Below, one piece after another: positions 25,383 through 63,379 of a stretch of 64,000 nucleotides of DNA. Source of the stretch: Promethearchaeota archaeon (GTDB lineage: Archaea; Asgardarchaeota; Lokiarchaeia; Sigyniarchaeales; SOKP01); contig JAEOSU010000037.1 in NCBI GenBank assembly GCA_016840165.1, positions 20,100 through 84,099 of the forward strand. Reading direction: 5' to 3'. Made by a program: the position numbers and the translations under genes. Below the pieces are notes generated by a model, which was not told the DNA's origin, searched no databases, and saw only the letters and a list, made by a program, of their open reading frames with translations. Positions within the stretch are counted from its first letter, which is position 1; each line of letters opens with the position of its first letter.

Positions 25383-26430
25383 TTTTTAGACTCTCATATT
25401 TTTCATGAATAATTCTAATTACATTTGGCATTATGTTAAATTTGATTTCTTTTTCTTTTTTAATTATCAATTCCAATATGCGATAGATTGTAAAATACTC
25501 AAAATCATCAATTTTTAATTGGAATTTTTTAAAATAATAATTTTGATAGATTCCTTCTAAGGACCATCTCAAATGTTTTTTATTTATATTAATAGGGATA
25601 TATAATTCTTTTAATTCTTTTATGGAGTTTAAGAACTTTTGAATTTCCGATATGAATTTATCGATATCATTAATCTCTAATAAAGCATCGATTTTTTCTT
25701 GGCTTAAAAATAAGTATTCTCTAATAAGTAGTTGCGATGTTAAATTCTTATCAAAATGATTAATTATTGCTCGTGATAAAATTCTCAAGTTATAAACTTC
25801 TGCTGAATAATCAATAAAAAGCGATATCATCGCTTTTTCTTTTTTATCATAAAAATGTTTTGTTAATATAAGATTTTCATAATATAATTTATCTAAAAAA
25901 GCCTCTAAAATAAAAATTTCGTTAGTATTTTTAAAATAGAGTATTCCCTCCCTTATGGGCTTGTTATAGCGCGTGTTTTTCATATAAAACTGAATTTCCT
26001 CTAAACTAGTGATCTCGAGCAAATCTTTAATAAAATCTGAACGCTCCAAATATTCTTCAACTAAATAATTAATCCTTTTAGATTTTTCTGATTTGCTAAT
26101 ACCGATTATTGATCCGAGTATTATTTGCTTAATGTTAGAGATTTCATACTTTAAAAGGTAGGCTTTTAAAAAGAGTTTCATATTATCCGGGGAAAAATAT
26201 AAAATCCTTCCTATTAATTTAATAAGGATATGAAAAAGAGCTTGTTCTATTTCCATAATATTATAATCCGAAATTTTGATTTCAGGATAATACGGAGAGA
26301 TAAATTCCATGAAATCCTTAATGCTATCAAATTTCTTTAACTGTGATAGGTTATTATCTTCAATAATTAATTTCTTAAGAAACTCTATCTTGATATAGGT
26401 ATAAACATAAGAGGGAATTACTATACTCGT
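25363..26430 (-). CDS. atpC: V/A-type ATPase subunit C (d); probable ACG start
   Basis: KYEISNIK, LEAFLDKLYY, YNLRILSR; frame open 40 codons above the ATG at 26310, up to an ACG preceded by GGTG, giving 355 aa. Confidence 0.85.
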   Translation of the reverse strand, partial: TSIVIPSYVYTYIKIEFLKKLIIEDNNLSQLKKFDSIKDFMEFISPYYPEIKISDYNIMEIEQALFHILIKLIGRILYFSPDNMKLFLKAYLLKYEISNIKQIILGSIIGISKSEKSKRINYLVEEYLERSDFIKDLLEITSLEEIQFYMKNTRYNKPIREGILYFKNTNEIFILEAFLDKLYYENLILTKHFYDKKEKAMISLFIDYSAEVYNLRILSRAIINHFDKNLTSQLLIREYLFLSQEKIDALLEINDIDKFISEIQKFLNSIKELKELYIPININKKHLRWSLEGIYQNYYFKKFQLKIDDFEYFTIYRILELIIKKEKEIKFNIMPNVIRIIHEKYESLKNGNENI

Positions 26431-26493
26431 AAAACAACACCAATTTATGAAATATTTATTTAGCTTAGTTTACAGATATGTCAAATCAATTGA

Positions 26494-26859
26494 TTATCCT
26501 GGCGGAGAGGGTATTTTTGTCCACAGAAGTATACCAACAATTAACCCATAAACCGCTAACGCTTCTGCTAACGCTACTACTAAAAAGGCTTTAAAGAAAG
26601 ATTCTTCTCTTTCTGCGAGTGAAGAAATTGCTGCGGTTCCTACGGTTTTTATTGCTAATGCACTACCCAATACTGAAGCCCCAACAGAAATTGCTGCTGA
26701 CATAGCTAGGATGGCTGAGGTGGCTGTATTGTAATAATCTAACGTAGTTGCTTGGGCTGCTACTAATGTCACTACTCCATTTGTAGAAAAAAATACAATG
26801 AATACTAGAACAATTTGAAATAATCCAAGTAATAAATAAAATTTCTTTTTGCCATTCAT
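26494..26859 (-). CDS. atpK: V/A-type ATPase proteolipid subunit K (c)
   Basis: One hairpin with ALAEALAVYGL (ion-binding Glu) plus an N-terminal hydrophobic extension. Confidence 0.93.
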   Translation of the reverse strand: MNGKKKFYLLLGLFQIVLVFIVFFSTNGVVTLVAAQATTLDYYNTATSAILAMSAAISVGASVLGSALAIKTVGTAAISSLAEREESFFKAFLVVALAEALAVYGLIVGILLWTKIPSPPG

Positions 26860-27060
26860 TTTTTAACCATTGCAATAATTTATTAATGTTTAAAAGGAAT
26901 AAGCGTTCACTAGCGTATAAATTCTTCGTTTATAAAATTAAAATTTATTAAATATTAAATCAGAAATAGCAAAAAGGAGTTTTTCAAGTTAGAAGTATTA
27001 ATGTATTATTATTCCGATATGAAATGATTTTCTTCAATTATTAGTCAAATATTTAACAAA

Positions 27061-27705
27061 TCAAGAATAGATTATTACTCTGATTTGATCTGCAATATCG
27101 TGTATTCTATCAGCTAGATTTTCAAGTAAAACAATACTATCTCTAATTCTAAGTGTCATTCTTATATCCAAATCTGTATTAGAATAAAGATATTCAAGGA
27201 ATTGCCTATAAATTCTATCAATTTTATTTTCTATTTCATGAATTTCAGTAGTGTTATTAAAGACTTTTTCTTGATTATCTCTTAGATTTTTTATAGTTGT
27301 TTTTAACACATTTGCCATATTCATTATCATGTTAATTAACTTTTCATACCTCTCAAAAATTTCTTTAGAACTATTAACTTTCAATTTAATATTAGGAAGC
27401 ATATCAACAAATTCGAGAGGATAGTTAATTAGATTGTCCATTCGAAGGATTAGAGCTACAATATTTCCCAATTGTGAGTCAATTTCTGCATAGTCTTTTA
27501 TTATTTTGATTTTAATCTCATCTGCTTCTTCTTCAACTAATTGCATTTTACTTTTTTTCTTAGTTAAGCTTTTTTTGTTCGATTCATAATTTTCAGACCA
27601 TCCAGTATAATATACGCCCATGTCACTGATTACGGAATAGATTAATCTTGAGTGATCTATAAGCAATGTGATTATTTCTTCTTTTATCTTTCTGTTTGAT
27701 AACAT
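27061..27705 (-). CDS. DUF47/PhoU-like phosphate transport regulator
   Basis: EEEADEIK and EIENKIDRIYR...LENLADRIHDIAD helical repeats. Confidence 0.85.
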   Translation of the reverse strand: MLSNRKIKEEIITLLIDHSRLIYSVISDMGVYYTGWSENYESNKKSLTKKKSKMQLVEEEADEIKIKIIKDYAEIDSQLGNIVALILRMDNLINYPLEFVDMLPNIKLKVNSSKEIFERYEKLINMIMNMANVLKTTIKNLRDNQEKVFNNTTEIHEIENKIDRIYRQFLEYLYSNTDLDIRMTLRIRDSIVLLENLADRIHDIADQIRVIIYS

Positions 27706-27815
27706 TTTAAGTTAAACCAAATTTGAAATACAATATTAATAATATATGATTAAAATAATAAAAATCATAAGATTCCAAATTACATAAAAGAAAAATAATA
27801 AAGAAAAAATATTTA

Positions 27816-27902
27816 TTATCTTACGATTAAGACATCAGAAGGAGTTTTGTTAATCACTTCATCTGAGTTTATTCCGTAATTTTTTAAAATCAAATCAGAA
27901 GA
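27816..27902 (-). pseudogene. Possible remnant of a universal stress protein C-terminus
   Basis: Reads SSDLILKNYGINSDEVINKTPSDVLIVR*, resembling the Usp GSxxxxVxxxxPxxVLxVR tail; no convincing start. Confidence 0.3.
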
Positions 27903-28421
27903 TTAGTGATTAAAGATATTATCAAGACGTAATACTAATTTTTTTACAATAATAAAAGTATTCAGTAAAACATGAGTATTTACCTTATCGGGTTGATCTT
28001 TCTTAGTATGTGAGCATTTTGAAGCAGAAGGTGTTGAAAAATCAATTGTTTCTAAAATAAGCAAATGAAAAGGTAAAGAATCAGTAGGAGCTCCTGATAA
28101 TAAAGTGTGACCCTTGATCTCTATTTTTTCTTCTTGAAAAATTTCATCTAATATTGATATAAGTAGGGAAGAACTCTTTTTTTTTGGAATAATACCATAT
28201 GATTTAATATATTCAACTCTATTTTCACCATTTCTACATGAAACCATATCAAAATTGATCTGATATATTTGATTATTAAGTAATTCTTGTTTAAAAAGAT
28301 CAAGAAATACTCTAGAGCCCATTGTACCTATTTCTTCTGCTGAAAACTGGTAAAACCAGATGTTATAATTATTAAGTGGATTTGCTTTAAAATATGAAGA
28401 TAATCCAAAAACTAAAGACAT
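27903..28421 (-). pseudogene. N-terminally truncated M28 family metallopeptidase
   Basis: FSAEEIGTMGS, INFDMV, TD.LPF, HT..D..DKV present; upstream HxD and DNASG metal ligands missing, with an in-frame stop 9 codons above the ATG. Confidence 0.65.
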
Positions 28422-28516
28422 GATTGAGTATTCAAAATTATATGTTTATCATGATAAATTTAATTTCAAATATTATTTTATTAAATTTTATATATTATTA
28501 ATAATGGCGAATACAT

Positions 28517-29758
28517 ATGAAAGCTGTAAAAATAGCAGATAAAGTTTTTTGGATTGGAGCAAATGTGCATTCAGAAGATTTATTTGAAGGAATTTGGCCT
28601 ATACCAAATGGGATAGCTCTTAATTCTTACGTAATAAAAGCAAATAAAGTCGCTGTGATAGAACTTGTTAGAGAATGGGGTGGCGCCTCAATGAGTTTTA
28701 TTGAGAGTCTTAGATCCCTTAATCTTACTTTAAAAGATGTTGACTTCATCATACTTAATCATCTTGAGCCAGATCATACAGGATTTGCACATATCCTGAA
28801 GTCTCTTTCACCAAAGGCTAAATTTGTAACTACGGAAAAGGGTGCAGCATTATTAGATGGTTTTTATGGCATAGATGAGAATATTATGGTTGTGAAGAGC
28901 GGAGATAAAGTAGATCTTGGTGAAAACAAATCTTTAGAGTTTATAGAAATACCACATGTACATTGGCCTGAGACAATGGCAAGTTATGAAGAGGATTCGA
29001 AGATATTATTTAGTGGGGATGCATTTGGAGCATTTGGGGTCCATCAAGGAAGTATTTTTGACGATCAGACCCCGGAAGTAAATAAACCTTATTGGGAACA
29101 AGAAATGTTAAGATATTATGCAAATATTATTGCTATGTTTTCTCCGAATGTAATTAAAGCAATCGACGCTCTTGCTCAATTTAAAATAAATGCGATCGCT
29201 CCTTCTCATGGTTTAATTTGGCGAGGGAAACCAGAAGTGGTAATAAAAAAGTACTCTCGTTACGCTAATTATAATAAAGATTTTGCTGAACCTGAAATAT
29301 GTGTTGTATGGGGAAGCATGTATGGAAATACGGAAGCGATGTTAAATGCGATCTTAAAAGGTATAGCCTCTGAAGGGATATATATCCATATTCATAGAGT
29401 TCCTAATGAAGAACCATCCTTTATTCTGGCAGACGCTTATAAATCAGCTGGTTTAATTATAGGAGCTCCTACATATGAATACAGTATGTTTCCCCCAATG
29501 AAATATTTATTGGAACTTTTACAAAAGAAACATATGTGGCATAAAAAAGTCATATATTTTGGATCATACGGATGGAGTGGAGGAGCTCAAAAGGATTTTA
29601 ATGCGTTATCTGAACATATGAATTGGGATATCATTGAACAACTAGTATTTAAAGGTCATCCAACCGTTCAAGACCTTAACAAAGGAGAGGAGATAGCAAA
29701 GAAATTTGCTCAATCAATATTAGAAATACCTTCTAAAATAAAAGATGAGGATTATTGA
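28517..29758 (+). CDS. fprA: Flavodiiron protein FprA (O2/NO reductase)
   Basis: NHLEPDH, PHVHWPE, FSGDAFG, YYANI, PSHG, and flavodoxin domain SMYGNTE...GSYGWSGG. Confidence 0.94.
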   Translation: MKAVKIADKVFWIGANVHSEDLFEGIWPIPNGIALNSYVIKANKVAVIELVREWGGASMSFIESLRSLNLTLKDVDFIILNHLEPDHTGFAHILKSLSPKAKFVTTEKGAALLDGFYGIDENIMVVKSGDKVDLGENKSLEFIEIPHVHWPETMASYEEDSKILFSGDAFGAFGVHQGSIFDDQTPEVNKPYWEQEMLRYYANIIAMFSPNVIKAIDALAQFKINAIAPSHGLIWRGKPEVVIKKYSRYANYNKDFAEPEICVVWGSMYGNTEAMLNAILKGIASEGIYIHIHRVPNEEPSFILADAYKSAGLIIGAPTYEYSMFPPMKYLLELLQKKHMWHKKVIYFGSYGWSGGAQKDFNALSEHMNWDIIEQLVFKGHPTVQDLNKGEEIAKKFAQSILEIPSKIKDEDY

Positions 29759-29915
29759 TTTTTTTTTCTTCTTATTAAAAGTTGAGGTATTGAAATGTAA
29801 TTTATATATCATATGAAGCTATAATCACAAAATATTAATTTCTGGAATCCTTTCATAATTTAAAAGTAAAATGCGAGATAGATATAGCATCACTTATAAT
29901 GATGGGTTGTATTAA

Positions 29916-31397
29916 ATGATATATCAGGGCTTATTTAACATTCTAAGCTTATATCTTGATAATCTAGAATTTTTTTATAATTCTCTTGACCTATATTTTC
30001 AAGATAAAATTATACCTTCTCTGAGTATTGATTTAAAGGGTAAAAAGAACCTTGATCTTGCTTTAGATGAATTAAGAAAGGTAATATCGAAAGCTTTACG
30101 AGAAATTGGAGTAAAAGAAATAGAAGTTGAAAATAAATTATCTGACCCTTTTTTAGAACTTAATCCGGAGGATTACGATAGAATAAATTCTTTAAATGAT
30201 TTATATCAATATAAAATAGCTCCTATTATCTATGAAATCTTTTTGGAGGAATTAGTTCATTACATTGCTGAATCCACCGCCAGCGAAATTATTATAAATC
30301 TAAAATCGAAAGGTTTTTTAAATATTGAGTTTATGGTCGATATTAAGGGCTTAAAAAGCTTATTTGATGAGAATGAGGATAAAAAAGAAAATTTAAAAAA
30401 ATATATCGAAATTCGAGATACCTTTATTAAAAATTTAAGTGAGAACAAACGAAGAATAGAGGTTTTAGAAGATTTAAATAACCCGAAGGATAAACTCCAA
30501 CTATTATATTTGATTTATCGAATTATTAATTTTTTTCATTTGCAAAGAAGATTTGATTTTTCTCATATAATTGAGTATATTAAAAATAACGTGGATGATT
30601 GGCTAATGACTATCCCATTAGTTACTTTAAAAAATCCTGATCTTTATTTTTGCGGTTTATATTTAGCTACAAACCTAAAAATTCCATTAGACAAAGAGAA
30701 GATTAAAAACTTCCTTATGGAATTATATGAAGAAGCTATCGATGAGTTTGAGGCTCCATTAGTGGAAGCAACAGATGGATTGTACTATTTTTTAAAATCA
30801 ACCAATTTAATGAAGATATGGTTAGATGACTCCCAGGTAGATAGATTAATTGAAACTGATACAAAATTTTTTGAGCCTAATTATTTAAAAAATTTGGAAA
30901 CTTCGCAATTAGTCATAATTCTTAAAATTTATAATTTAGTTAAAAGAAAGGCAACAATGGAAGAGAATATTACTAAAATCATAGCAGAAATAGAAAATAG
31001 AATTAGCTCCGATGGTATTGCACAATATAGAGAGGGTTTTATATCCTCAGAAGCTACATATTATGTGTTGTTTTGCCGATATATGAATCAGTCGTTAGAT
31101 AATTTACAGGATTATGAGTTATTAAATACTATCGTATCTCGAATTTATAGAAATCTTGAATTATTAGAATTTACAGCCGATATGAATTATGACCTCATAT
31201 CTGAATTGTTCTATTCATTCGAAAGTTTAAAATTATTCAACTGCATAGAAACTAAGGAAATGATTATCCTGCTAGCAAATTATTTGTTCCCTCCAAAAGT
31301 TGTAGAAAAAATTGAGAGTTCAAGCGAGATTGTCAAGGCCGATGCTAAATTTCGACATTTGAAAGTAGACAGGATAACGGGCGAGACCATATATTAA
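29916..31397 (+). CDS. Hypothetical all-helical protein, possible alpha/alpha-toroid C-terminal half
   Basis: Long ORF with normal composition; repeated EAT..YY-like helix starts. Confidence 0.6.
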   Translation: MIYQGLFNILSLYLDNLEFFYNSLDLYFQDKIIPSLSIDLKGKKNLDLALDELRKVISKALREIGVKEIEVENKLSDPFLELNPEDYDRINSLNDLYQYKIAPIIYEIFLEELVHYIAESTASEIIINLKSKGFLNIEFMVDIKGLKSLFDENEDKKENLKKYIEIRDTFIKNLSENKRRIEVLEDLNNPKDKLQLLYLIYRIINFFHLQRRFDFSHIIEYIKNNVDDWLMTIPLVTLKNPDLYFCGLYLATNLKIPLDKEKIKNFLMELYEEAIDEFEAPLVEATDGLYYFLKSTNLMKIWLDDSQVDRLIETDTKFFEPNYLKNLETSQLVIILKIYNLVKRKATMEENITKIIAEIENRISSDGIAQYREGFISSEATYYVLFCRYMNQSLDNLQDYELLNTIVSRIYRNLELLEFTADMNYDLISELFYSFESLKLFNCIETKEMIILLANYLFPPKVVEKIESSSEIVKADAKFRHLKVDRITGETIY

Positions 31398-31580
31398 AAC
31401 CCCAATATTTAATTTACAAATTTTAAAGTTTTAAATTATCAAAAATTACTCTAAGAAGATCTATGATTTATATTGTAAACTTAATAACGGTGTTAGATTC
31501 TGATCTATTAATTAATTTATCACAAGATTGATACCTGAAAAGAGATTCAAACAATTGATTTAAAAGAGAGAGGATAGCAA

Positions 31581-32366
31581 ATGGGTCTGAAAGAAACAAC
31601 TGCAAAATGGAGAAAATATGCAGAAATGTCTGATTTGGGCATTATTGTTCGGAGAAAGTTTTTTAATAATTGTTTTGATGGAGCATTAACTTGTGCAGGA
31701 ATTGTAAGCGGTATATTTGTTCTTTTTTTAGCTGGTATCAGTGAAAACACTCCAGGGAATATTGTTGTGTTAGGATTTTCAACAGCATTAGCGATTGGTA
31801 TCAGTGGATTGTGGGGCGCCTTTCTTTCTGAAGAAGCAGAACGAAAAAAAAAAATAATTGATCTTAAAAAAGAGATGGTTATCATTGATCAAGAAGGTGT
31901 TAATGATATACTTGAAAAAGAAAAATTAGACCTGGCAAGAGAAATACTAAAAGAGAGATCCATAGAAAGAGCTATGCTAATTCCACTTAAGAAGAGTAAT
32001 ACGGGGGAAAATGAAAAAGCGGTCTTGATTCCTATCCAAAGAAGACCTAAAATGAAAAAAAATGATAAAACTCTTATCGAACAAGCAGAAAATTTCGCAA
32101 CGATAGTAGCTTCTCTTGTGGATGGTGGTGCCCCTGCCTTAGGATCAACTCTGCCTCTCATTCCATTTTTCTTTGGAAGCGAATTAGTTATTTTACACTT
32201 TTTAATTTCGTATGCGATTCTTGTTGGTTTACTTATTTATTTGGGGATATTTTTGGGTAATATTTCAGGTCAAGGGAAATTAAAGTATGCTATACATCTT
32301 GTAACAGCAGGGGTGGTAACACTCTTAGTTTCCTTATTATTAAGTCTTGCAACCGGTAATTTTTAG
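31581..32366 (+). CDS. VIT1/CCC1 family metal transporter
   Basis: RRKFFNNCFDG, ISG.WGAFLSEEAER, DGGAP..G..LPLIPF. Confidence 0.85.
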   Translation: MGLKETTAKWRKYAEMSDLGIIVRRKFFNNCFDGALTCAGIVSGIFVLFLAGISENTPGNIVVLGFSTALAIGISGLWGAFLSEEAERKKKIIDLKKEMVIIDQEGVNDILEKEKLDLAREILKERSIERAMLIPLKKSNTGENEKAVLIPIQRRPKMKKNDKTLIEQAENFATIVASLVDGGAPALGSTLPLIPFFFGSELVILHFLISYAILVGLLIYLGIFLGNISGQGKLKYAIHLVTAGVVTLLVSLLLSLATGNF

Positions 32367-32456
32367 TAAAAAGTTGATTCGAAGATTATAATTTCGTAAT
32401 ATATCATAGAAAAGTTTAAAATATTCCTTTAAAAGTAAATAATTGGAGTATTTCTA

Positions 32457-34097: not shown

Positions 34098-35240
34098 ATG
34101 CAAGCATTAGAGATTTTCGAGGAATTTTCTCTTTATTTAAAAGAGATGAAAAGCAAGGGGAAAAAAGTAATAGCATTTATCTCGCATGATAATATTCCTG
34201 AGGAATTAATAGACGCTGCCGGATTTATTCCATTACGGTTGATTTTCGCAGGAAATGATGAATTAATGGATGCGAGTCATGATTATTTACCCCCATCTAC
34301 CTGTGCTTTTGCGCAAACTTGTATCGGTCTTTTTGCTTTAAAACCTCGTCAATTTGATTTTTTAGATTTAATAGATTATTTTATCGTATCTAATCATTGT
34401 GTATCAGATATATGTGCTTCTGAAGTTATATGTAAGTATTTTAATATTCCTCGATTAAATTTTTACATCTCTTACATAAGAAATAGCAATAGTGAGAAAT
34501 ACTTTCGGTTAGAAATCTTGGAATTTAGAAAGAAATTAGAGGAAATTAAGAATTCAGTAATATCTGATGAGGCAATAATTGAAAGTATTAAGAAATACAA
34601 TGAATTCAGAAAATTCCTTGAAACTTTAAATAATTTAACTATTCAAGGAAGTCTAAAACTAAAACTCATGCAGAAGGCTTTTTTATTTGGACCTAAAATC
34701 ATCCCAGAACTAAAAGATTTTATCAATTCCAATAATAATTTAAGAGCACAATCGTCCAATTCGAAAGATCTCTTACTTACGGGATGTTCAATCTTCATGA
34801 ACGATATATTAATCGATTTAATCAAAGAAGGAGGAGGAAATATTATATTTTTTGATTCTTGGATTGGATCCAATTATTATTCGCAACAATTTGATAATAG
34901 TGCTTTTGAGAATACACAAAAACCAATTGATTTATTAGCCTCTCGATATATAAACAATATTTATGGCGATCATTGTGTGCCGAATTTTTTAGAAAATAAA
35001 ATCGCTCAAATTGAACAGATCTACAGGAAGTATAAGGAAAAAACGGGGAAAAGATTAGGAGTGATAAACCATATCATAAAATTTTGTGATCATATGTCTC
35101 TCATGTCATCCTTTTTTAAAAATAAATTACAAGAAAAGGGTATTCAAGTACTAAATATCGAACGTGATTATTCAAGAGCCAATCGAGGTCAATTGTCGAC
35201 TCGTATTGAAGCTTATTTGGAGATGGGTGATTCAGAATGA
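34098..35240 (+). CDS. 2-hydroxyacyl-CoA dehydratase subunit (HgdB/BcrC-like)
   Basis: PEELIDAAGFIP.R, TCAFAQ, KFCD, QLSTRIEAYLEM. Confidence 0.88.
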   Translation: MQALEIFEEFSLYLKEMKSKGKKVIAFISHDNIPEELIDAAGFIPLRLIFAGNDELMDASHDYLPPSTCAFAQTCIGLFALKPRQFDFLDLIDYFIVSNHCVSDICASEVICKYFNIPRLNFYISYIRNSNSEKYFRLEILEFRKKLEEIKNSVISDEAIIESIKKYNEFRKFLETLNNLTIQGSLKLKLMQKAFLFGPKIIPELKDFINSNNNLRAQSSNSKDLLLTGCSIFMNDILIDLIKEGGGNIIFFDSWIGSNYYSQQFDNSAFENTQKPIDLLASRYINNIYGDHCVPNFLENKIAQIEQIYRKYKEKTGKRLGVINHIIKFCDHMSLMSSFFKNKLQEKGIQVLNIERDYSRANRGQLSTRIEAYLEMGDSE

Positions 35241-36589
35241 GTTTAATTGCAGATGAAATCGTTAGATTCTCCTCAGTATTAAAAATAGCTTATAATTTCT
35301 TGACAGGAAGAGCATATTTAAAACGAAAAAAGTTTAGGGAAAAACAAAAATTAGTGTCAGTACCACTTCCGTTTTCGGATTTGCCTTTCGCTGCGGGAAC
35401 GGTACCAGTTTTTCCGATCAGGATGCATAATTTTAAGATAAATCAATATCTTACCTATTTAGGGACTGCTTCGAATATTTTTGGATGGAAAGGAGTATCG
35501 AATTTTTTAAGTTTTGTGAAGAACCTTGGGATTAGTGAAGTGAGTAAAATTGTTGATGATATTATCGAAGATGTCATCCGAGAAATTAATGAAAAATATA
35601 ACGAAATGTATGACATCGGTATAGAGGGGGGGATTTCAAGTGATTTCTGTTATGGCCTAAAAAGTCTTGTAGGTATGAATTTATCAAAAAGTCGCAATGT
35701 TGACGCGTATATGAATGTCACTATTCGATGCAGTGCCTTCAATAAATACTTAGAATCATTAAGTGCTATAAATAATGAACCGCGCCCAATTTGGATCGAT
35801 ATTCCTCCTAGAAATATAGGTAATGCTTTAGAATTATTAACAGATAACGTATCACACGCTTTAAGTGATTTTGAGCAGTTAACTGGGAATACCATATCAG
35901 ACAATATGTTAAGAAATCATTTTAATATCAGTAATCAAGTAAAGCGTGCTTACAACACCATTATTTATGATATTAGTGCCTCTGATTTTTATCCATGTAA
36001 TCCTGCAACTTTTAGCGAAATCATGTCTTTATTAAACATTACATTTATTGATTATAACTCTAATGCAACTCGTTATAGAGATAATATGAATTCGTTAGTG
36101 AATGAGATGCGAGAAAGGATCAGGAAACATATCGGAATGGATGTCTCTGATATGCCACGAATCTTTGTCACCCCTATCTTTGGTGGATGGGAACCAAAAA
36201 CTCATGACTATATTTATGAGTTAGGAGGAAGGGCACTTTACGCTGATTGGGGGCTATTAAAATTACTTGAAGAGTTACCTATTTCACCTAGTAATAATCC
36301 AGTAGAAGAATATGCACGATTTCTTTTGAATGCCACACAAACAGGAATTGGTTGTGATAATGACAAACTGACGGATTCATATCTTCGTATGGCAAAAGAA
36401 TTGAATGCTGATGGTGTAGTTTTTATTCAATTGTTTGGTTGTCATTCGATTTCTAATTGTTATCGAATGTTAAGAGACAAAGTAAGAAAAGAATTAGAGA
36501 TTCCTATAACCGCGATTACTTTTAATAAAATTGGAGAGAATATCGAACAAGTGAAAACTCGTATTGGGGCTTTTATGGAGATGTTTTAA
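35237..36589 (+). CDS. 2-hydroxyacyl-CoA dehydratase-family subunit (divergent)
   Basis: DFCYG, IRCS, ADGVVF...FGCHS, EQVKTRIGAFMEM; 4-nt overlap with the upstream subunit. Confidence 0.8.
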   Translation: MSLIADEIVRFSSVLKIAYNFLTGRAYLKRKKFREKQKLVSVPLPFSDLPFAAGTVPVFPIRMHNFKINQYLTYLGTASNIFGWKGVSNFLSFVKNLGISEVSKIVDDIIEDVIREINEKYNEMYDIGIEGGISSDFCYGLKSLVGMNLSKSRNVDAYMNVTIRCSAFNKYLESLSAINNEPRPIWIDIPPRNIGNALELLTDNVSHALSDFEQLTGNTISDNMLRNHFNISNQVKRAYNTIIYDISASDFYPCNPATFSEIMSLLNITFIDYNSNATRYRDNMNSLVNEMRERIRKHIGMDVSDMPRIFVTPIFGGWEPKTHDYIYELGGRALYADWGLLKLLEELPISPSNNPVEEYARFLLNATQTGIGCDNDKLTDSYLRMAKELNADGVVFIQLFGCHSISNCYRMLRDKVRKELEIPITAITFNKIGENIEQVKTRIGAFMEMF

Positions 36590-38858: not shown

Positions 38859-39026
38859 TTCTATCTATATTAAAACTTTGCAACAATTAAATATTTAGAA
38901 GATTTTTAAAATATTTTAAGATTTCAAAAGAAAAGGGTAGAGAGAAAGAAAAAAACATAAAATAATGATTTATTTTAATTATAATAGTAGTAATGAAAAT
39001 AATTGACTAAAAAAGAGGTGATAAAT

Positions 39027-39188
39027 ACGAGAAGAGGAGGAAAGGGAAGAGGGGGTGGTCCGTATGCTGCAGGGCCAGGGGGCAATTGTGTTTGCCCAAA
39101 TTGTGGTTATCAAAAGCCACATCAAACGGGTGTACCTTGTATGAATGAAGTATGCCCAAAATGTGGTACAAGAATGACTAGAAAATGA
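39027..39188 (+). CDS. Small Gly/Cys-rich metal-binding protein; probable ACG start
   Basis: GPGGNCVCPNCG...HQTGVPC...CPKCGTRMTR; GAGGTGA SD lies 5 nt before ACG at 39027 (in-frame TTG 39003 and GTG 39018 are alternatives). Confidence 0.8.
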   Translation, partial: TRRGGKGRGGGPYAAGPGGNCVCPNCGYQKPHQTGVPCMNEVCPKCGTRMTRK

Positions 39189-43922: not shown

Positions 43923-44095
43923 AATTGATAATAATATAACATCATTCTTATTTGAATTTGAGTAGAATATTCTTATTCTTTATAAAGACCGCTTATTTTT
44001 AAAAAACTGCTCAAAAATTTTATTACCTTACCATGATTAAATTAAAAATATATATATTCAGTTAAGAAGTTAAGAACGAAGGAGATGAAGAAGGA

Positions 44096-45451
44096 ACGAG
44101 TATCTATGCTGATGATGTTATTAGCTTTACTTCCCTTTTAAAAATGGCAAATAACTTCTTAACAGGTAGAGAATATTTACGAAGAAAAAAACTTCGAGAA
44201 AAAAAGAAGCTCATTTCAGTTGCTTTAGGTTTTCCTGATTTAATTTTTGCTGCTGGAGGTATACCTGTTTTTCCAATTAGATTAGAATCATTTACTGTTA
44301 ACCGATATTTAACTGCCCTAAATTCAGCGACAAGTGTTTTAGGATGGAGTTTAACCGCCAAATTTCTAGATTTTGCTCGACAATTTGATATATTAAAATT
44401 AGTGGATAAAATACTCGAGGAAGTAATTTCCTCAATCAATCAGAAATACAATCAAATGTACGACTTAGGGGTTCAAAATGGAGTTCCCTCTGATTTATGT
44501 TATGGAATCTATGCGCTTTATGGCATGCATAAGGAACGGAAGCAAATAGATGCCAATTTAAATTTTGCGATGAGGTGTGGAGAATGGAATAAAATCTCCG
44601 AATCGCTGAGATCGATTGTACCAAATCAAATTTGGGTAGATATACCTGCTTTAAATGCAGAAGATGAGAAAGAACGGTTATCGTTAATGGTGTCGAATGT
44701 CAATAAGGCTATTGATGAATTAGAATTGTTAACTGGGAACGTAATATCTGATAATAGCCTTAACAAGCAATTTCGGATAGGTAACCAGGTGAAACGTTTT
44801 TATAACACAATCTTATATGAAATTAGTGCGTCAAATTTTTATCCATGTAATCCTGCAACTTTTGCAGAAATCCTAGCTCTATTAACAATAACCTTTCAAG
44901 ATTATAATTCCAATGCTCAGCGGTTTTTAGAGAATATGAGCCATCTTGTAAAAGAGATGCGAGAACGTATAAAAAAAGGGATTGGAATGGATGTAACAAA
45001 TATGCCAAAATTACTTTTCTCTCCAATGTATAGCGGTTGGGAACCAGAAATCCATGAAATTATCTATAAATTGGGGGGACGTGTATTATATGCCGATTGG
45101 GAGATCTTAGGCTTACTTGAAGAAATTCCTGTATCAAAAAATTCAGATCCTATAGAAAGTTATTCCCGATATTTATTAGATGCATCTACTAAAGGTATAG
45201 GATGCGATAACGAAAACTTAACAAGTTCGTATCTCAAGGCTGCCAAAAACATGGAGGTTGATGGTCTTATTTTCAATCAGGTATATGGATGTCCTTCAAT
45301 GTCAAACATATATGAGAATCTTAAGAGAAAAGTTGAATCTGAATTAAAATTGCCTTCAATAGTAATAAAGTTCAAAAAGATAGGAGAAAATATTGAAGAA
45401 ATTGAAAATCGCTTGAAACCATTTATGGAGGAACTTCGAAGTATCGATTAA
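44096..45451 (+). CDS. 2-hydroxyacyl-CoA dehydratase-family subunit, paralog of 35237..36589; probable ACG start
   Basis: Shares NFLTGR.YL, PVFPIR, CYG, ISAS.FYPCNPATF.EI, LGGR.LYADW, GIGCDN with the paralog; alignment extends 16 codons above ATG 44144 to ACG 44096. Confidence 0.82.
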   Translation, partial: TSIYADDVISFTSLLKMANNFLTGREYLRRKKLREKKKLISVALGFPDLIFAAGGIPVFPIRLESFTVNRYLTALNSATSVLGWSLTAKFLDFARQFDILKLVDKILEEVISSINQKYNQMYDLGVQNGVPSDLCYGIYALYGMHKERKQIDANLNFAMRCGEWNKISESLRSIVPNQIWVDIPALNAEDEKERLSLMVSNVNKAIDELELLTGNVISDNSLNKQFRIGNQVKRFYNTILYEISASNFYPCNPATFAEILALLTITFQDYNSNAQRFLENMSHLVKEMRERIKKGIGMDVTNMPKLLFSPMYSGWEPEIHEIIYKLGGRVLYADWEILGLLEEIPVSKNSDPIESYSRYLLDASTKGIGCDNENLTSSYLKAAKNMEVDGLIFNQVYGCPSMSNIYENLKRKVESELKLPSIVIKFKKIGENIEEIENRLKPFMEELRSID

Positions 45452-55250: not shown

Positions 55251-55261
55251 GATGTGATTAT

Positions 55262-57076: not shown

Positions 57077-57910
57077 ATGCCCTTCTTCAAAAATCAAGAG
57101 GGATACAATCTATATTACGAAGATATTAATGGGGAAACAAAAGAAAAAACCGAAGGAACTATAATACTCCTTCATGGTTTTGCTTCTTCAGCTTCTTTTT
57201 TCAAAGGGCAAATTAAAATATTAAGAAAATTTTATCGTATCATTGCTTTTGATGCTCTAGGGCATGGAAAAAGTGATATTTCAAAAAGCTTAAATTTATC
57301 TAAAAATTTACGCCATGATATTATCCGGGATTTAGAAGATCTTTTACTCTATTTAGGAGTGACAGAAAAATATGGCATTATTGGACATTCATTAGTAGGG
57401 GGTATGATAGCTCAATTATATTGCTCAAAACATCCAGAAGAGATTAAATTTCTTATCCTTCTTAATTCAGGATATATCATGATTGATAATGTAATCCGAA
57501 ATATCTTTTACAACTTGCTTCCTTACTTTATACGGATGAACTTTTTAGAGGTGGTTGCAAATTCTGTTGAAGATATTTTAGATAAAGTTATTCCTTATAT
57601 TCTAACTTCGATTGCAGAGACTATAAACGGCATGAAATTAAGCAGAGATGAGATTTTAATGCTAATCGAAGATCAAATTTTTGGGATGATCACCGAAATT
57701 AAAGAATATGATCCTTCAAATATTCAATGTCCCACACTGATTATCGGGGGGCGATTAGATAATTTTGCCCCAGAGCAAATGTCAGAAGAACTGAATAAAA
57801 AAATTCCTAACTCACGGTTAGAGATACTTGATATGGCTGGTCATTTCGCACCTGCTCAACGTCAAGATGAAATTAATCACTTAATATGTGAATTTATTAA
57901 TAGTCTTTAG
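57077..57910 (+). CDS. Alpha/beta-fold hydrolase
   Basis: LLHGF, FDALGHGKS, GHSLVGG, PTLIIGGRLD, AGH. Confidence 0.9.
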   Translation: MPFFKNQEGYNLYYEDINGETKEKTEGTIILLHGFASSASFFKGQIKILRKFYRIIAFDALGHGKSDISKSLNLSKNLRHDIIRDLEDLLLYLGVTEKYGIIGHSLVGGMIAQLYCSKHPEEIKFLILLNSGYIMIDNVIRNIFYNLLPYFIRMNFLEVVANSVEDILDKVIPYILTSIAETINGMKLSRDEILMLIEDQIFGMITEIKEYDPSNIQCPTLIIGGRLDNFAPEQMSEELNKKIPNSRLEILDMAGHFAPAQRQDEINHLICEFINSL

Positions 57911-57951
57911 TAAGATAATATTACTATTATGGAATCAAAATACCAATTGAA

Positions 57952-58320
57952 GTGAGTATTATTTTAAGCGATAAACACACTACACTTTCATTTTTCAAGG
58001 ATGAAGTTGCAGAATTTGTACAAAACCGGGATTGGGGGAAATATCATACACCAAAAAACCTGATTCAAGCTCTACAAATTGAAGCTTCTGAATTATCAGA
58101 AATATTTTTATTCAAAGACTATTCACTCGAACAGATCCTCGATAATAGTGAATTATTAAAAGATATTTCAGATGAATTAGCAGATGTATTTATCTATCTA
58201 ATTAGTTTAATAAACCTATTTGGAATCGATTTAACAGAAACCTTTTCCAATAAAATGAAAAAAAATAGTGCTAAATATCCGATTAAAGAATTTAATAATG
58301 GAATTTATTATAAGAAATAG
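57952..58320 (+). CDS. MazG-like all-alpha NTP pyrophosphohydrolase (dCTPase/DCTPP1-like)
   Basis: RDWGKYHTPKNL...EASELSEIF, DELADVFIY, KM.KN..KYP. Confidence 0.9.
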   Translation: MSIILSDKHTTLSFFKDEVAEFVQNRDWGKYHTPKNLIQALQIEASELSEIFLFKDYSLEQILDNSELLKDISDELADVFIYLISLINLFGIDLTETFSNKMKKNSAKYPIKEFNNGIYYKK

Positions 58321-58412
58321 ATTATATCTTTTTACTCCCTTTTTTTGATGTAATAATTCCTCAATAAATTATAGATGAAGTATTTTAATGGCATTAAATC
58401 TAAAGATCTATC

Positions 58413-59390
58413 ATGGTCAAGGATAATATTGAAACAATTATTAAAGAACAGTTGGGAAAAACCTTAAATGGAACCAATTTTACCTCGCTAGGCGAGTTGT
58501 ATACAGGAAAAGTACGAGATAATTATATAAAAAAAGATATTCGTATAATTATCGCGACGGATCGTCTCTCTGCGTTTGATCGAGTAATTACTACTATTCC
58601 ATTTAAAGGGGAATTACTTAATCGAGTTTCTTCTTTTTGGTTTGAAAAGACAAAGGATTTAGTTAAGAATCATGTCATTGAGATTCCAGATCCAAATGTA
58701 GCAGTAGTCCATCAGTGTGAGATGATTCCTATTGAAATGATTGTTCGAGCATATATTACTGGTTCAGCATGGCGTAATTATACAAAAGGTGTGCCGACAT
58801 CTGGAATAGAGTTACCCTCAGGATTGCGAAAGAATCAAAAGTTAGATGGAGTGTTATTAACACCATCAACAAAAGCAGAAACAGGTCATGATATCTATAT
58901 TTCTCGAGAACAAATCCTTAAAGAAAAGATGGTTGATAAAGAAATTTATGAACAAATAGAAGATGCTGCATTAAAATTGTTTGAATTTGGTCAAAGGTAT
59001 TGCAGAAAAAATGGTTTAATTTTAGTAGATACTAAATATGAATTTGGAATGAAGAATGGGGAATTGATGGTAATTGATGAGATTCACACCCAAGATTCTT
59101 CTCGATTTTGGATTCTTGATTCTTATGAGGAAAGATTTGAACGTAATGATGAGCCAGAGATTTTAGATAAGGAAATATTTAGAGGATGGTTAATGGATAC
59201 CTATCCCGATATTTTTCCTAACATTAAACCCAATCAAGAAATCCCTCCAATTAGTAATGGTATTAAGATAGAATTAGCAAAGCGATATATGAAGAGTTAT
59301 GAGAAAATTACAGGATTAGAATTCGAAGCTACTGTTGCTAATGTGCAACAGAGAATTTATAATAATTTAAAGAAAGCAAATTACATATAG
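58413..59390 (+). CDS. purC: SAICAR synthase (long Ade1-like form)
   Basis: GKVRDNY, ATDRLSAFD, EMIVRAYITGS, TPSTKA, LVDTKYEFG, DEIHT.DSSRFW, DKE.FR.W. Confidence 0.95.
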   Translation: MVKDNIETIIKEQLGKTLNGTNFTSLGELYTGKVRDNYIKKDIRIIIATDRLSAFDRVITTIPFKGELLNRVSSFWFEKTKDLVKNHVIEIPDPNVAVVHQCEMIPIEMIVRAYITGSAWRNYTKGVPTSGIELPSGLRKNQKLDGVLLTPSTKAETGHDIYISREQILKEKMVDKEIYEQIEDAALKLFEFGQRYCRKNGLILVDTKYEFGMKNGELMVIDEIHTQDSSRFWILDSYEERFERNDEPEILDKEIFRGWLMDTYPDIFPNIKPNQEIPPISNGIKIELAKRYMKSYEKITGLEFEATVANVQQRIYNNLKKANYI

Positions 59391-59437
59391 AAAATAAGAA
59401 AAATTATATAAAAGAATAAATAGTATTTTTTTGTATT

Positions 59438-59644
59438 ATGATTGATTTTATTCTTCTCATTGGAGCTTTGGTTTTATTTATTAGTAGTTTTGTTTTATTA
59501 ATGAAAGACCTTTTATTAAAAAATAGCCTTCAAAATCAAAGTTCAGAGGGAAAGTTAACTAAATATAGTGGGTATTGTCTTGGATCTTCACTGTTGGCTC
59601 TTATGCTCATGATTTTTGTAAGCTTTGGCTATATTTATAGATAA
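59438..59644 (+). CDS. Small two-TM membrane protein
   Basis: 68-aa ORF with two hydrophobic helices, filling the purC-purS gap. Confidence 0.5.
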   Translation: MIDFILLIGALVLFISSFVLLMKDLLLKNSLQNQSSEGKLTKYSGYCLGSSLLALMLMIFVSFGYIYR

Positions 59645-59773
59645 TGAGCTATATTGAATATCAATAAAGCATTTTCTTTTAAAGAAACGATTTTTTGTCG
59701 TATTTCGTGAATCTAAATTATTTATTAATTAATAAGCATTAATATAATTATAACACACTTTTTTCTTTTAAAG

Positions 59774-60043
59774 ATGGATCAATTAGAATTTATAATAGAA
59801 GTTTCACTCGAGAACAAACCTGCTGCTCGTGATCCAGTTGCTGAAACCATAAAAAGGGATTTAATCGCTAAAAAAGGTTATAATATGGTTTCAAATGTAA
59901 GATCAGGTCAATACTTAAGAATAAATATCTTAGCTGAGAATGAAACCCAAGCTAAGGAGATTGTAACCAAGATGTGTAACGATCTTAGGATATTTAATCC
60001 TGTAACTCAGAATTTAACCGTTCTTAATGTGAAAAAATTATGA
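59774..60043 (+). CDS. purS: FGAM synthase subunit PurS
   Basis: KPAARDP.AETI, VRSG, NPV; overlaps purQ. Confidence 0.9.
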   Translation: MDQLEFIIEVSLENKPAARDPVAETIKRDLIAKKGYNMVSNVRSGQYLRINILAENETQAKEIVTKMCNDLRIFNPVTQNLTVLNVKKL

Positions 60044-60753
60044 AAGCAAAAATCGCAGTTCTCATGTTTCCCGGTAGTAATTGTGATTTAGATACAGTAC
60101 ATGTGCTTAAAAATGTGATAAAAGTAGAAACAGATTTAGTATGGCATAATCATTTTAAAGAAGAGAATTATGACGGGGTTATTTTACCGGGCGGATTTGC
60201 ATTTGGAGATTATTTAAGAGCTGGTATCATCGCAGCACATAGTCCAGCTATCGATGAGGCTAAAGTAATGCTTAAGGATGGAAGACCAGTAATTGGTATT
60301 TGCAATGGATTTCAAATTTTAACTGAGGCACAATTTCTCCCAGGAGCACTGCTTCAGAACGATTCTCTTAAATTTGTTTGTAAGTGGGTTAATCTTGTCG
60401 TAGAGAACAATAATACTGCACTCTCAAATAAGATGAAAGAAGGAGAAGTTATCGATATACCAATTGCTCATGGTGAAGGACGCTTCTTCACAGATAATCT
60501 AAAAGAGTTAGAGGAAAATAATCAAATTGTCTTTCGTTATGCAGATGAGCAGGGAAAAGTCACCAAAGATTCCAATCCAAATGGATCTTTGGGAAATATA
60601 GCAGGAATATGCAATTTAGAACGAAATTGTGTTGGATTAATGCCTCATCCTGAACGCGCTTCTGAGGTAATTTTATCTCCAAAAAAAACGACTCATGGCC
60701 GATTATTTTTTGAATCAATGATGGAATATATTGGGAGGAGGATACTTCAATGA
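60040..60753 (+). CDS. purQ: FGAM synthase glutaminase subunit PurQ
   Basis: FPGSNCD, PGGFAFGDYLRAG, GICNGFQ, PIAHGEG, NPNGS, MPHPER. Confidence 0.96.
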   Translation: MKAKIAVLMFPGSNCDLDTVHVLKNVIKVETDLVWHNHFKEENYDGVILPGGFAFGDYLRAGIIAAHSPAIDEAKVMLKDGRPVIGICNGFQILTEAQFLPGALLQNDSLKFVCKWVNLVVENNNTALSNKMKEGEVIDIPIAHGEGRFFTDNLKELEENNQIVFRYADEQGKVTKDSNPNGSLGNIAGICNLERNCVGLMPHPERASEVILSPKKTTHGRLFFESMMEYIGRRILQ

Positions 60754-62996
60754 CTAAAGTAAATCTAAATGGGGAAGAAGTAAATGTAGAAATGACGAAA
60801 AATGAATATGAGAAAGTTAAAGAATTATTAAATAGAGAGCCAACTATTACTGAGCTTGGAGCATTTGATGTAATGTGGAGTGAACATTGCTCATACAAGT
60901 CATCTCGTCCTAAATTGAAATTATTTGAGGATGCTGAAGCGGAATATGACTATGTACTTGCGGGACCTGGTCAAGATGCAGGAGTTATAGATATTGGTGA
61001 TGGATATGCTTTAGCTTTTAGAATAGAATCACATAATCATCCCTCAGCAATTGAACCTTACCATGGTGCTGCTACGGGAATCGGAGGAATTATTCGAGAC
61101 ATTCTCTGTATGGGAGTTCGACCTATAGCATTATTAGATCCATTAAGATTTGGTAGATTAAAGAATAATCCTCATTCACAATGGTTGTTTAAGTATGTTG
61201 TAAAAGGTATTGCAGATTACGGTAATTGTACGGGAATTCCAACGATAGGGGGAGAAGTAGAGTTTGATGAAAGTTTTGAAAGTAATTGTTTAGTCAACGT
61301 AGCATGTATTGGTTTAGGTAATATTGAGGATTATAAACACGCTCCCAGTAGAGCATATAATCCTGGGGATTATGTAATACTGATGGGTGGATCTACTGGA
61401 CGTGATGGAATTCACGGGGTCACCTTTGCATCTCGTACTTTAACAGAGATGTCTGAAGCAGATAGACCGGCAGTTCAAATTGGTGATCCATTCACCAAAA
61501 AAATGATTATTGAAGCTACAATAGAAGCTGTTAAAACAGGTTATGTAAGAGGGTTAAAAGATCTTGGTGGTGGAGGTTTAACCTGTGCCACTAGCGAGTT
61601 AACGGGAGATGGGAACACGGGAGCAAAAATAGATTTGAAAAACGTATTCACGAGAGAACCGGGCATGAACTCTTACGAATTAATGTTATCTGAATCTCAA
61701 GAAAGGATGGCTTTTGTCGTTAAACCAGAAGGTTTAGATACAATTTTGGAAATATTTCGAAAATATGAGATGAATTTTGCCGTTCTTGGAAGAACTGACG
61801 ATTCAAAAGTATTAAAAGTATTTTATGGTGATCAGTTAGTAGTTAGTCTACCCGCAAAAGCGCTTTCTGAATCACCAACATTTAAAAGACAAGAGAAGCG
61901 TCCCTCTTATTTAGATGAATTACTGAGGCAAAAAACGCCAACACCATCACTAGGATTTGATGAGAATATATTTCAATTAATAGCTTCGGAGAATATTTGT
62001 AGTAAGGAATGGGTATACCGGCAATATGATCATGAAGTAGGAGTTCGATCCGTAGTTAAGTGTGGAGAGGGAGATTCAGGTGTCTTAAGAATAATAGGGA
62101 CTAATAAATTTATCGCAGCAAGTGTTGGCGTTAATTCTAAGCATTGTTATCTAGATCCTTATGAAGGAGCTAAAGGGGGGTTAGTTGAAGTCTGTGGAAA
62201 TGTTCTTGCAAACGGAGCGAAACCGATGGCTATGGTGAATTGCTGTAATTTTGGTAATCCAGAAATTTCCGAATCTTATTGGTATTTTTCTAAAGCTGTG
62301 GAAGGGATGAATGATTTCTGTAGAAAATTGAAAATTCCAATCGTTGGAGGGAATGTCTCTTTCTATAATGAAGACGAGGTTAAAAAGACCGCGATTAAAG
62401 CTACTCCAATGATTATGGTGGTAGGATTGATTGAAGGAGAGGAGAAAATAATCACTTTACCTTTCAAAAGTCCAGGTAATGATATTTTTTTAATTGGAAG
62501 TACTAAAAAAGAATTAGGGGGATCTGAATATCATTCTATAATTCACAATATTGAAGGAGGTCAACCCCCTAAAGTCGATGAGAACCAAATTAGAGCTACT
62601 TGGGATTTTCTCTTGAAATTATATCAAGAAAAATTAGTTAAATCAAATCACGATGTAAATAAAGGCGGATTCATAATTACCATTATAGAGATGTGCTTTA
62701 AAAATGAACTAGGGGCAGATCTTGATCTTAGTGGTGTTAATATCGATAATTTACGAGATGATGAGCTTTTGTTTAGTGAATCTGTAGGGCGATTTATAAT
62801 TGAAACAGATCCTAACAGCTATGATATGATAACTGAATTAGCTAATAGATATGGTGTTTTTGCTCAGAAAGTTGGAGTTGTAGATAAAAAACCACATATT
62901 CGGATAGAAGGTTTAGCAGTAGGTTCATTAGAACTTGATGTTCATAAACTGAAAAATCTATATGAATCGACCATTCCAAATCTAATGGAAATTTAA
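60750..62996 (+). CDS. purL: FGAM synthase subunit PurL
   Basis: MWSEHCSYKSS, ESHNHPSA.EPY.GAATG.GGI.RD, DLGGGG, LSESQERM, QYDHEV, GGNVSFYN. Confidence 0.97.
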   Translation: MTKVNLNGEEVNVEMTKNEYEKVKELLNREPTITELGAFDVMWSEHCSYKSSRPKLKLFEDAEAEYDYVLAGPGQDAGVIDIGDGYALAFRIESHNHPSAIEPYHGAATGIGGIIRDILCMGVRPIALLDPLRFGRLKNNPHSQWLFKYVVKGIADYGNCTGIPTIGGEVEFDESFESNCLVNVACIGLGNIEDYKHAPSRAYNPGDYVILMGGSTGRDGIHGVTFASRTLTEMSEADRPAVQIGDPFTKKMIIEATIEAVKTGYVRGLKDLGGGGLTCATSELTGDGNTGAKIDLKNVFTREPGMNSYELMLSESQERMAFVVKPEGLDTILEIFRKYEMNFAVLGRTDDSKVLKVFYGDQLVVSLPAKALSESPTFKRQEKRPSYLDELLRQKTPTPSLGFDENIFQLIASENICSKEWVYRQYDHEVGVRSVVKCGEGDSGVLRIIGTNKFIAASVGVNSKHCYLDPYEGAKGGLVEVCGNVLANGAKPMAMVNCCNFGNPEISESYWYFSKAVEGMNDFCRKLKIPIVGGNVSFYNEDEVKKTAIKATPMIMVVGLIEGEEKIITLPFKSPGNDIFLIGSTKKELGGSEYHSIIHNIEGGQPPKVDENQIRATWDFLLKLYQEKLVKSNHDVNKGGFIITIIEMCFKNELGADLDLSGVNIDNLRDDELLFSESVGRFIIETDPNSYDMITELANRYGVFAQKVGVVDKKPHIRIEGLAVGSLELDVHKLKNLYESTIPNLMEI

Positions 62997-63130
62997 TGTT
63001 TTTTATTGTAATTCAAAGATTGAAAGATTTGTACGTTCTTATAACACGAACATTTAAAAAATAATTAGAAATTAGAAATATTTTACATTTTTATGTGTAT
63101 ATAGGGTTAATACATATAGGTGTATAGGCT

Positions 63131-63379
63131 ATAAGGGTTCGAGCTTGTGTTAAATGTAAAGAGTATGTTGTTATTCATCCTAATAATCCTATAAATCAGA
63201 ATTTGATTTCGGTATTCGAAAAAAATCACCGACAGCATACGCTTATTACCGTAAATTTAGATGAGGTTAAAGAATCATATCAAATTTTTAAAGCCAATAG
63301 CTCTACAGAGAACTTAAAGGATTACGGCCAAAATGGAGAGTTTAAATATAGTCCAGAATCATTGAAAAATTCTCTATAA
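63131..63379 (+). CDS. Small putative Zn-binding protein (CxxC...HxxH); probable ATA start
   Basis: (M)RVRACVKCKEYVVIHPNNP...FEKNHRQHTLITVNLDEVK, 82 codons; AGGTG SD 8 nt before ATA; in-frame TAG two codons upstream. Confidence 0.65.
   Translation: MRVRACVKCKEYVVIHPNNPINQNLISVFEKNHRQHTLITVNLDEVKESYQIFKANSSTENLKDYGQNGEFKYSPESLKNSL

Follow-up and report, generated by a model that had tools for sequence, protein, structure and literature searches.

The window analysed here is a stretch of 64,000 nucleotides from a Promethearchaeota archaeon (Asgard, Lokiarchaeia-type); it has a G+C content of 30% and sits on contig C14 of G000, a metagenome-assembled genome (MAG) of 3.6 Mb in 105 contigs (99.7% complete, 6.3% contamination). 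Four of its genes have a near-cognate codon at the place of the start codon: atpC for subunit C of the A-type ATPase (25363..26430, minus strand), the gene of a Cys-rich microprotein (39027..39188, plus strand), a paralog of the 2-hydroxyacyl-CoA dehydratase D-component (44096..45451, plus strand) and the gene of a conserved small protein of 82 amino acids (63131..63379, plus strand). Throughout the text ATG, GTG and TTG are called canonical starts, and the near-cognate starts met are ACG, ATA, ATT and CTG. The genes were compared with those of same-genus genomes (congeners, G-numbers); all genomes compared are short-read MAGs. The 3' end of the G000 16S rRNA is GGATCACCTCCT, complementary to GGTG(A), and therefore motifs of the GGAGGTGAT type represent the true Shine-Dalgarno (SD) sequence of this genome. 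Such an element or a similar one (GGTG(A) or GGAGATGA) is located 6–8 nt upstream of the near-cognate codon at all four sites.

The atpC product read from ACG matches Pfam vATP-synt_AC39 over residues 17–330 in the numbering from this codon. The ACG (26428..26430, minus strand) is followed by AGT (ACG AGT 26430-26425) and preceded at a distance of 7 nt by the SD core GGTG (26438..26441, minus strand). No in-frame ATG, GTG or TTG is present between the stop codon 26472-26470 and ACG, and the first canonical codon of the frame is ATG 26310, 40 codons downstream. The ACG is conserved in congeners: the homologous codon is ACG AGT in 12 of the 16, ATG in three and TTG in one, and three genomes from other genera have ATG at this position. 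In an alignment with 24 relatives the homology of AtpC begins at residue 1–5 counted from ACG, and in several species in-frame stops are found 1–5 codons ahead of it. Almost all congeners have GGTG(A) 6–8 nt before the start, irrespective of the start codon itself. The TTG or GTG borne by this SD is in frame, out of frame or behind a stop depending on the species; it is the SD, as judged from the alignment, that is the conserved feature at atpC, and not any upstream start. The residues next to ACG, I-I-P-S-Y-A-Y-T-Y-I-K-I, are invariant and the third codon positions vary, with synonymous changes within the 40 codons after ACG for Pro (CCC/CCA/CCG/CCT), Ser (TCT/TCC/TCA) and Tyr (TAT/TAC). Such a combination of invariant residues and varying third positions is a signature of translated sequence.

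Since a single T in place of C would restore ATG, sequencing or assembly error has to be considered, as well as decay of the genes into pseudogenes. The short-read origin of all the genomes would agree with this, and one of the ACG cases outside the window, a hisB copy described below, is confined to a single species that has a second intact copy with ATG. At atpC, nine public MAG records obtained in different studies (several projects, hadal-trench among them) carry ACG in eight cases and ATG in one, the latter record being otherwise nearly identical to its ACG-bearing neighbours. More than 12 species-level genomes, assembled independently in several projects, share this ACG, ATG AGY is present elsewhere in those genomes, and the affected reading frames are intact and under purifying selection. 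Error or decay is thus hardly credible as an explanation, and independent MAGs from several studies uphold the opinion of an earlier reading of the window (referred to below as the sequence-only reading) that a base-calling error is improbable. On the evidence of conservation, ACG is very probably the real start of atpC.

The dehydratase paralog (Pfam HGD-D) is read from ACG AGT at 44096. The SD-like element GGAGATGA (44081..44088, plus strand), identical to GGAGGTGA at 7 of 8 positions, lies 7 nt upstream of ACG, and the same spacing of GAGATGA is retained in most ACG-bearing orthologues. Between the in-frame TAA 44063 and ACG 44096 there is no in-frame ATG, GTG or TTG; the first ATG of the frame is 44144. 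G000 and nine congeners have ACG AGY at the start and six congeners have ATG AGY at the aligned codon, where paralogues and other families show ATG (or GTG). The homology starts at residue 1–2 counted from ACG, and in six ACG-bearing species an in-frame TGA is located 4 codons before it. The upstream neighbour is divergently oriented and separated by a spacer of 170 nt; the dehydratase gene is therefore the first in its unit, and coupling to an upstream reading frame is not needed for its translation. These comparisons point to ACG 44096 as the real start. Translation of a short upstream open reading frame (uORF) with a frameshift, starting from GTG within GGTG or from ATG within GAGATGA, was considered as well and rejected: homology begins exactly at ACG, and those GTG and ATG codons show no in-frame conservation.

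The second HGD-D paralogue of the window (35237-36589) is situated 7.5 kb from the one at 44096-45451 and is 54% identical to it. Nearly all congeners retain both.

The gene of the 82-residue protein begins with ATA AGG (63131-63133), and the SD core GGTG (63119..63122, plus strand) is located 8 nt before ATA. No in-frame ATG, GTG or TTG occurs between the in-frame TAG 63125 and ATA 63131, and the nearest canonical codon downstream, a TTG, is about 24 codons away (near 63203). The N-terminus of the protein corresponds to xRARACIKCKEY in relatives. The aligned first codon of the family (28 homologues and G000) is ATG in 17 copies, ATT in six, ATA in three (G000 included), GTA in two and GTT in one. 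GGTG is found 4–9 nt upstream in 8 of 10 near-cognate copies vs 1 of 17 ATG copies, a difference for which the Fisher test gives P = 1.7e-4, to be taken as indicative only because related copies are not independent. Among the genes studied this family gives the clearest sign of a strong SD compensating for a weak start codon, and the alignment points to ATA 63131 as the real start. The proteins of this family are small and uncharacterised and have the N-terminus MRARACIKCKEY; a genome may contain as many as four copies, and the N-terminal motif is also found inside reading frames of approximately 400 amino acids in G017 and G005. The sequence-only reading had described the 63131 frame as Zn-binding, a description not borne out by its single CxxC and the lack of a Pfam match.

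The microprotein (53 amino acids from ACG) begins with ACG AGA at 39027. Its SD, GAGGTGAT (39015..39022, plus strand), has a GGTG that ends 6 nt before the ACG. At this site the in-frame codons TTG 39003 and GTG 39018, the latter within the SD, precede ACG. The homologue in G024 has an identical SD followed by ATG, and in G016 the codon after the SD is TTG, with stops preceding it; both proteins start one residue ahead of the RRGG motif, as does the protein read from ACG 39027. ACG is probably the start, being the codon that fits homology and SD spacing best, and GTG or TTG may serve in its place.

All four near-cognate codons (three ACG and one ATA) named by the sequence-only reading were thus found at their positions, together with the three frames that lack an upstream canonical codon and the three GGTG-type SD sequences. 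The aligned N-termini of orthologs, which it had proposed as a check, have a canonical or the same near-cognate codon at the homologous position. At atpC, the dehydratase and the ATA-initiated frame the agreement goes beyond chance because at these codons the relatives show ATG/TTG or share the near-cognate codon, and the homology begins exactly there.

This is the evidence against which translation from the downstream canonical codons (ATG 26310, ATG 44144 and TTG near 63203) has to be weighed, an alternative in which the preceding stretches would be untranslated or regulatory. Gene callers would pick these downstream codons, and many archaeal mRNAs are leaderless. The preceding stretches, however, are conserved as in-frame protein with synonymous changes at third positions and begin where relatives have ATG or TTG. 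A downstream start would also cost AtpC 40 conserved residues of the AC39 domain and strip the CxxC N-terminus from the 82-residue protein, and in two further genes, hisB and aIF1 (see below), no canonical codon is reached before the middle of the domain. Downstream initiation is accordingly very unlikely.

The frequency of near-cognate starts was estimated by comparison of stop-to-stop reading frames of G000 with those in 1.2 Mb of the congener G018, which gave 691 ortholog-like pairs. A canonical codon is present at the same position in both genomes for 579 starts; among the well-defined starts of G000 ATG accounts for 85%, TTG for 9% and GTG for 5.5%. A strict filter, with a canonical start in one genome, none within 10 codons in the other and at least 50% identity over the next 8 residues, left 15 cases. 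Opposite the canonical start stand ATT in six of them, ATA in two and ACG in one (binomial P = 3e-4 vs the background of 18%), and the six other cases mostly have a near-cognate codon 1–3 codons away. GGTG is located 4–9 nt upstream in 4 of the 9 strict near-cognate starts and in 32 of the 579 canonical ones (Fisher P = 0.0012). By eye, after removal of antisense shadow frames and of pairs conserved through an in-frame TGA, about 15 genes per genome (G000, G018) show at least 10 conserved codons ahead of any canonical start, most of them with GGTG(A) 4–9 nt before ATT, ATA, ACG, CTG or ATC. Genes with a conserved N-terminus and without a canonical start thus make up about 2–3% of those compared, so that the rate of approximately 4 in 60 (~7%) assumed in the sequence-only reading is too high. 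The predominance of ACG among the four sites of the window does not extend to the genome either: ATT and ATA are the commonest non-canonical starts, ACG and CTG come next, and ACG is in the minority.

In the leaders of G000 an SD at the right spacing precedes 3.7% of CTG, 2.8% of ACG, 3.0% of ATG and 4.2% of TTG codons; the value for all non-canonical codons is 0.75%. These figures come from a spacing-aware and stricter scan, which replaced a loose one (GGTG/GGAG anywhere 4–14 nt upstream) that detected an SD at just 8.5% of first ATGs and at 6 of 141 ACGs and was dropped. A tally of the codons opposite the start of the partner gene, made without the demand for a conserved extension, was likewise discarded as too noisy: start positions drift by a few codons, and ATT, ATA and AAA are common. 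In 400 kb of G026, a complete genome from the sister family, no clear case was found among 128 low-identity pairs, a comparison of low power.

The gene bearing the weak start differs between G000 and G018. On contig C3 of G018 the orthologue of the window frame 24009..24731 (minus strand) of the ATPase operon has ATT and the window copy has TTG, and the orthologue of the membrane protein 12617..13219 (minus strand) has ATA behind AGGTGA and the window copy has ATG.

Several pairs of frames in G000 and G018 are conserved up to an in-frame TGA: C40 (plus strand, frame from 17381), C79 (minus strand), C42 (minus strand) and C9 (two frames on opposite strands). The TGA-interrupted examples include a SelD-like frame (SCKLGP) and frames beginning with GINIAEII and YEGECDYE. 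The conserved in-frame TGAs are probably selenocysteine codons, pointing to several selenoproteins in the genus.

A scan of the G000 leaders for ACG behind an SD revealed a copy of hisB on contig C102 (141-743, minus strand) with an ACG start; the SD in front of it is identical to that of G016, whose aligned codon is TTG. In G000 the second hisB copy (C50:7754-8353, minus strand) has ATG at this codon, and so have the other congeners. The next canonical codon of the C102 copy is 98 codons downstream, in the middle of the domain. The two copies are 78% identical and may stem from two strains; with a single species and a second copy that has ATG, hisB is the weaker case. A flavodoxin-like gene (C68:3512-3964, minus strand) has a CTG start behind AGAGGTG; the family has CTG in G000, G007, G018 and in a G012 paralogue, GTG or ATG elsewhere, and AGAGGTG in all cases. 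One more candidate, an SD with ACG GGT on contig C72, was rejected as a gene fragment, which matches just an internal part of the 640–670-residue frames of its relatives. The interchange of ACG, ATG and TTG in atpC and the dehydratase and of ATT, ATA and ATG in the small-protein family, the hisB and flavodoxin cases and the approximately 15 genes of G000 all support the lineage-wide relaxed start usage proposed in the sequence-only reading.

The same reading had stressed that AG follows the near-cognate codon. This is true for the four sites of the window and does not extend to the wider set, where near-cognate starts precede GAA, GGT, TCA, AAG, TTT and AAA (e.g. ACG GAA, ACG GGT, ATT TCA, ATT AAG, CTG AAA). 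Among the well-defined canonical starts of G000 10% precede AG, AGT being the third commonest second codon, and AGY remains the second codon in those orthologues of atpC and the dehydratase that have ATG. The AG is, by this comparison, a property of those genes and not of the mechanism.

The presence of ACG and CTG in the set raises the question of C-to-U editing of mRNA, by which, as in plant organelles, ACG would reach the ribosome as AUG and CUG as UUG. Both C-containing near-cognate codons would become canonical in this way, and ACG is stably retained in many species instead of mutating to ATG. Editing cannot repair ATT and ATA, which are the most frequent non-canonical starts, and the association of near-cognate starts with strong SDs agrees with a weakness of the codon itself. 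A search for the DYW deaminase (PF14432) gave no match, the control genomes being also without a match; the only deaminase found is a generic one of the CDA fold (PF00383), as in most prokaryotes. To our knowledge, start-codon mRNA editing has not been described in archaea, and we regard it as improbable here.

The initiator tRNA gene of G000 was located through its anticodon-arm sequence on contig C49 (~11021-11160, plus strand), since ARAGORN recovered few tRNAs owing to introns. It has the anticodon CAT and the A1:U72 pair, its anticodon stem carries GGG/CCC, and it is apparently interrupted by two introns, the first behind the anticodon loop and the second within the T arm. The initiator is thus canonical (anticodon CAU). 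No initiator-like tRNA with the CGT anticodon was found in G000, the tRNA set being incomplete (22 Rfam matches), and tRNA-Thr(CGT) shows elongator features. With only 22 matches in a genome that is 99.7% complete, many of its tRNA genes are probably split or rich in introns.

The gene of the initiation factor aIF1 (SUI1) is located on contig C49 (34399-34737, minus strand) and has no in-frame ATG, GTG or TTG before the middle of the SUI1 domain. The 5' region is nearly invariant in all 14 congeners having the gene (14/14) and consists of TTG TGA, three codons, an invariant ATT and AAA GAC, with the first Cys of the zinc knuckle three codons past ATT AAA GAC. The codon at the ATT position is ATA in the sister genus g5, TTG in the genera g2 (complete genome included) and g9, and ATG in more distant families. 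A start at ATT makes the N-terminus 2 residues longer than that in the solved structure of M. jannaschii aIF1 (4MO0). The aIF1 gene therefore appears, from this pattern of conservation, to start at a weak near-cognate ATT, which suggests by analogy an autoregulation similar to that of infC.

Two elements are conserved in front of the ATT of aIF1: the TTG-TGA start-stop and an out-of-frame uORF of 5 codons whose TAA overlaps ATT (ATTAA). It is possible that one of them is translated with subsequent re-initiation at ATT. In a broader form of this explanation near-cognate codons in general would serve re-initiation after termination of an upstream frame (translational coupling) and not initiation de novo. 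Besides aIF1, the position of atpC within an operon, 63 nt past the preceding gene, and the TGA of the SD that is in frame just upstream in many near-cognate cases would agree with it. This TGA arises automatically, however, whenever GGTGA is spaced by 7 nt from the start, the association with strong SDs fits direct binding of the 30S subunit, and the dehydratase, as the first gene in its unit, has no frame to be coupled to. Re-initiation as the general explanation is unlikely.

Taken together, ACG, ATA/ATT and CTG are most probably genuine and evolutionarily maintained start codons in this genus. We infer initiation at these codons, as well as methionine as the first residue, from conservation alone. 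In the mechanism that we propose, a strong SD (GGTG(A), paired to the 3' end of 16S rRNA) would bring the codon 4–9 nt downstream into the P site, where the ordinary Met-tRNAi (CAU) would pair with it with one mismatch, so that the protein would begin with Met. Weak starts would be tolerated in this way at roughly 2–3% of genes. The factor aIF1, which rejects non-AUG codons, would itself be made from AUU and thus exert negative feedback on the stringency of initiation, as at infC.

Several points weigh against this interpretation. In the published view archaea use AUG, GUG and UUG, and aIF1 rejects AUU (PMC4705826). At the loci themselves, the SD of the dehydratase is imperfect, in-frame TTG and GTG codons precede the ACG of the microprotein, and the hisB copy with ACG is confined to one species, its contig measures just 2.3 kb, the bin has 6.3% contamination, and the copy may be a dying one. 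ATT and ATA are frequent codons at 30% G+C, so that calls from a single pair of genomes run the risk of false positives; the statistics ignore the kinship of the species, and the P values overstate the evidence.

A more far-reaching and tentative idea is that the near-cognate starts form a tunable "stringency regulon", in which aIF1 made from its invariant AUU feeds back and approximately 80–100 genes with SD-anchored AUU, AUA, ACG or CUG are co-regulated through the fidelity of initiation. Its members would include ATP synthase subunit C, acyl-CoA dehydratases, flavodoxin and small proteins. Such a regulon, if it exists, would be an archaeal forerunner of the eukaryotic eIF1-controlled near-cognate initiation, convergent with the control of bacterial infC.

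Gene callers of the Prodigal type accept just ATG, GTG and TTG as start codons, and therefore a few percent of the proteins of these Asgard archaea are very probably truncated, over-extended or missed. The evidence supports in this respect the warning of the sequence-only reading that automated annotation truncates or hides genes. Misannotation reaches AtpC, HisB and aIF1 itself, and affects domain calls, prediction of signal peptides and phylogenomic matrices built from Asgard MAGs. The compensation by the SD provides a simple rule for finding such starts, and the sites found here are concrete, testable cases. A search of the literature on archaea and Asgard for ACG or other non-canonical starts yielded no paper describing ACG starts.

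Met-tRNAi reads ACG and CUG starts in eukaryotes and in the viruses that infect them, e.g. in AAV VP2 and Sendai C'. The likeness to the present case includes the codons (ACG, CUG, AUU, AUA), the pairing of the initiator with one mismatch, the need for a favourable context and the role of the homologous eIF1/aIF1 in setting the stringency. The context is different, being an SD here and not a Kozak sequence with scanning, and, unlike the starts of eukaryotic alternative isoforms, the near-cognate codon here is the sole start of housekeeping genes and is conserved across species. In plant organelles C-to-U editing turns ACG start codons into AUG. A genomic ACG at the position of a conserved Met is common to both systems; in contrast to organelles, the present organism is an archaeon, no editing factors were detected (the DYW search, with the same outcome in controls), and ATT and ATA starts coexist with ACG. 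Non-AUG starts in chloroplasts were discussed previously (PMC9845219).

In E. coli infC and pcnB, both with AUU, are said to be the sole confirmed genes with non-canonical starts (bioRxiv 10.1101/063800). In E. coli reporters AUA, AUC, AUU and CUG gave ~1–2% of the AUG activity and the remaining codons, including ACG, 0.1–1%; Met was the N-terminal residue from non-canonical starts, ACG and AUU included (same reference). IF3 is known to autoregulate via the AUU start of infC (PMC3326321, PMC4705826). As with aIF1 here, the gene of a fidelity factor has a weak near-cognate start of its own, and infC and pcnB are likewise placed behind an SD. Unlike the situation at infC, aIF1 is not homologous to IF3 and the feedback is a proposal drawn from the start codon; and in place of the two genes of E. 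coli there are dozens per genome, with ACG among the codons.

For archaea the accepted set of starts is AUG, GUG and UUG, and aIF1 of Sulfolobus discriminates against AUU in vitro (both reviewed in PMC4705826). The present system shares with the accepted one the SD-led mRNAs and the aIF1/aIF1A/aIF2 machinery and extends it by an extra tier of ATT, ATA, ACG and CTG starts. The conserved ACG and the AUU of aIF1 in the closest prokaryotic relatives of eukaryotes bear on the evolution of start stringency, a question posed in the same review. Eukaryotic eIF1 autoregulates through the poor initiation context of its own mRNA (PMC3326321). In both cases the stringency factor is made from a weak start; in aIF1 the weakness resides in the codon itself (AUU), as it does in bacteria, and in eIF1 in the flanking context.

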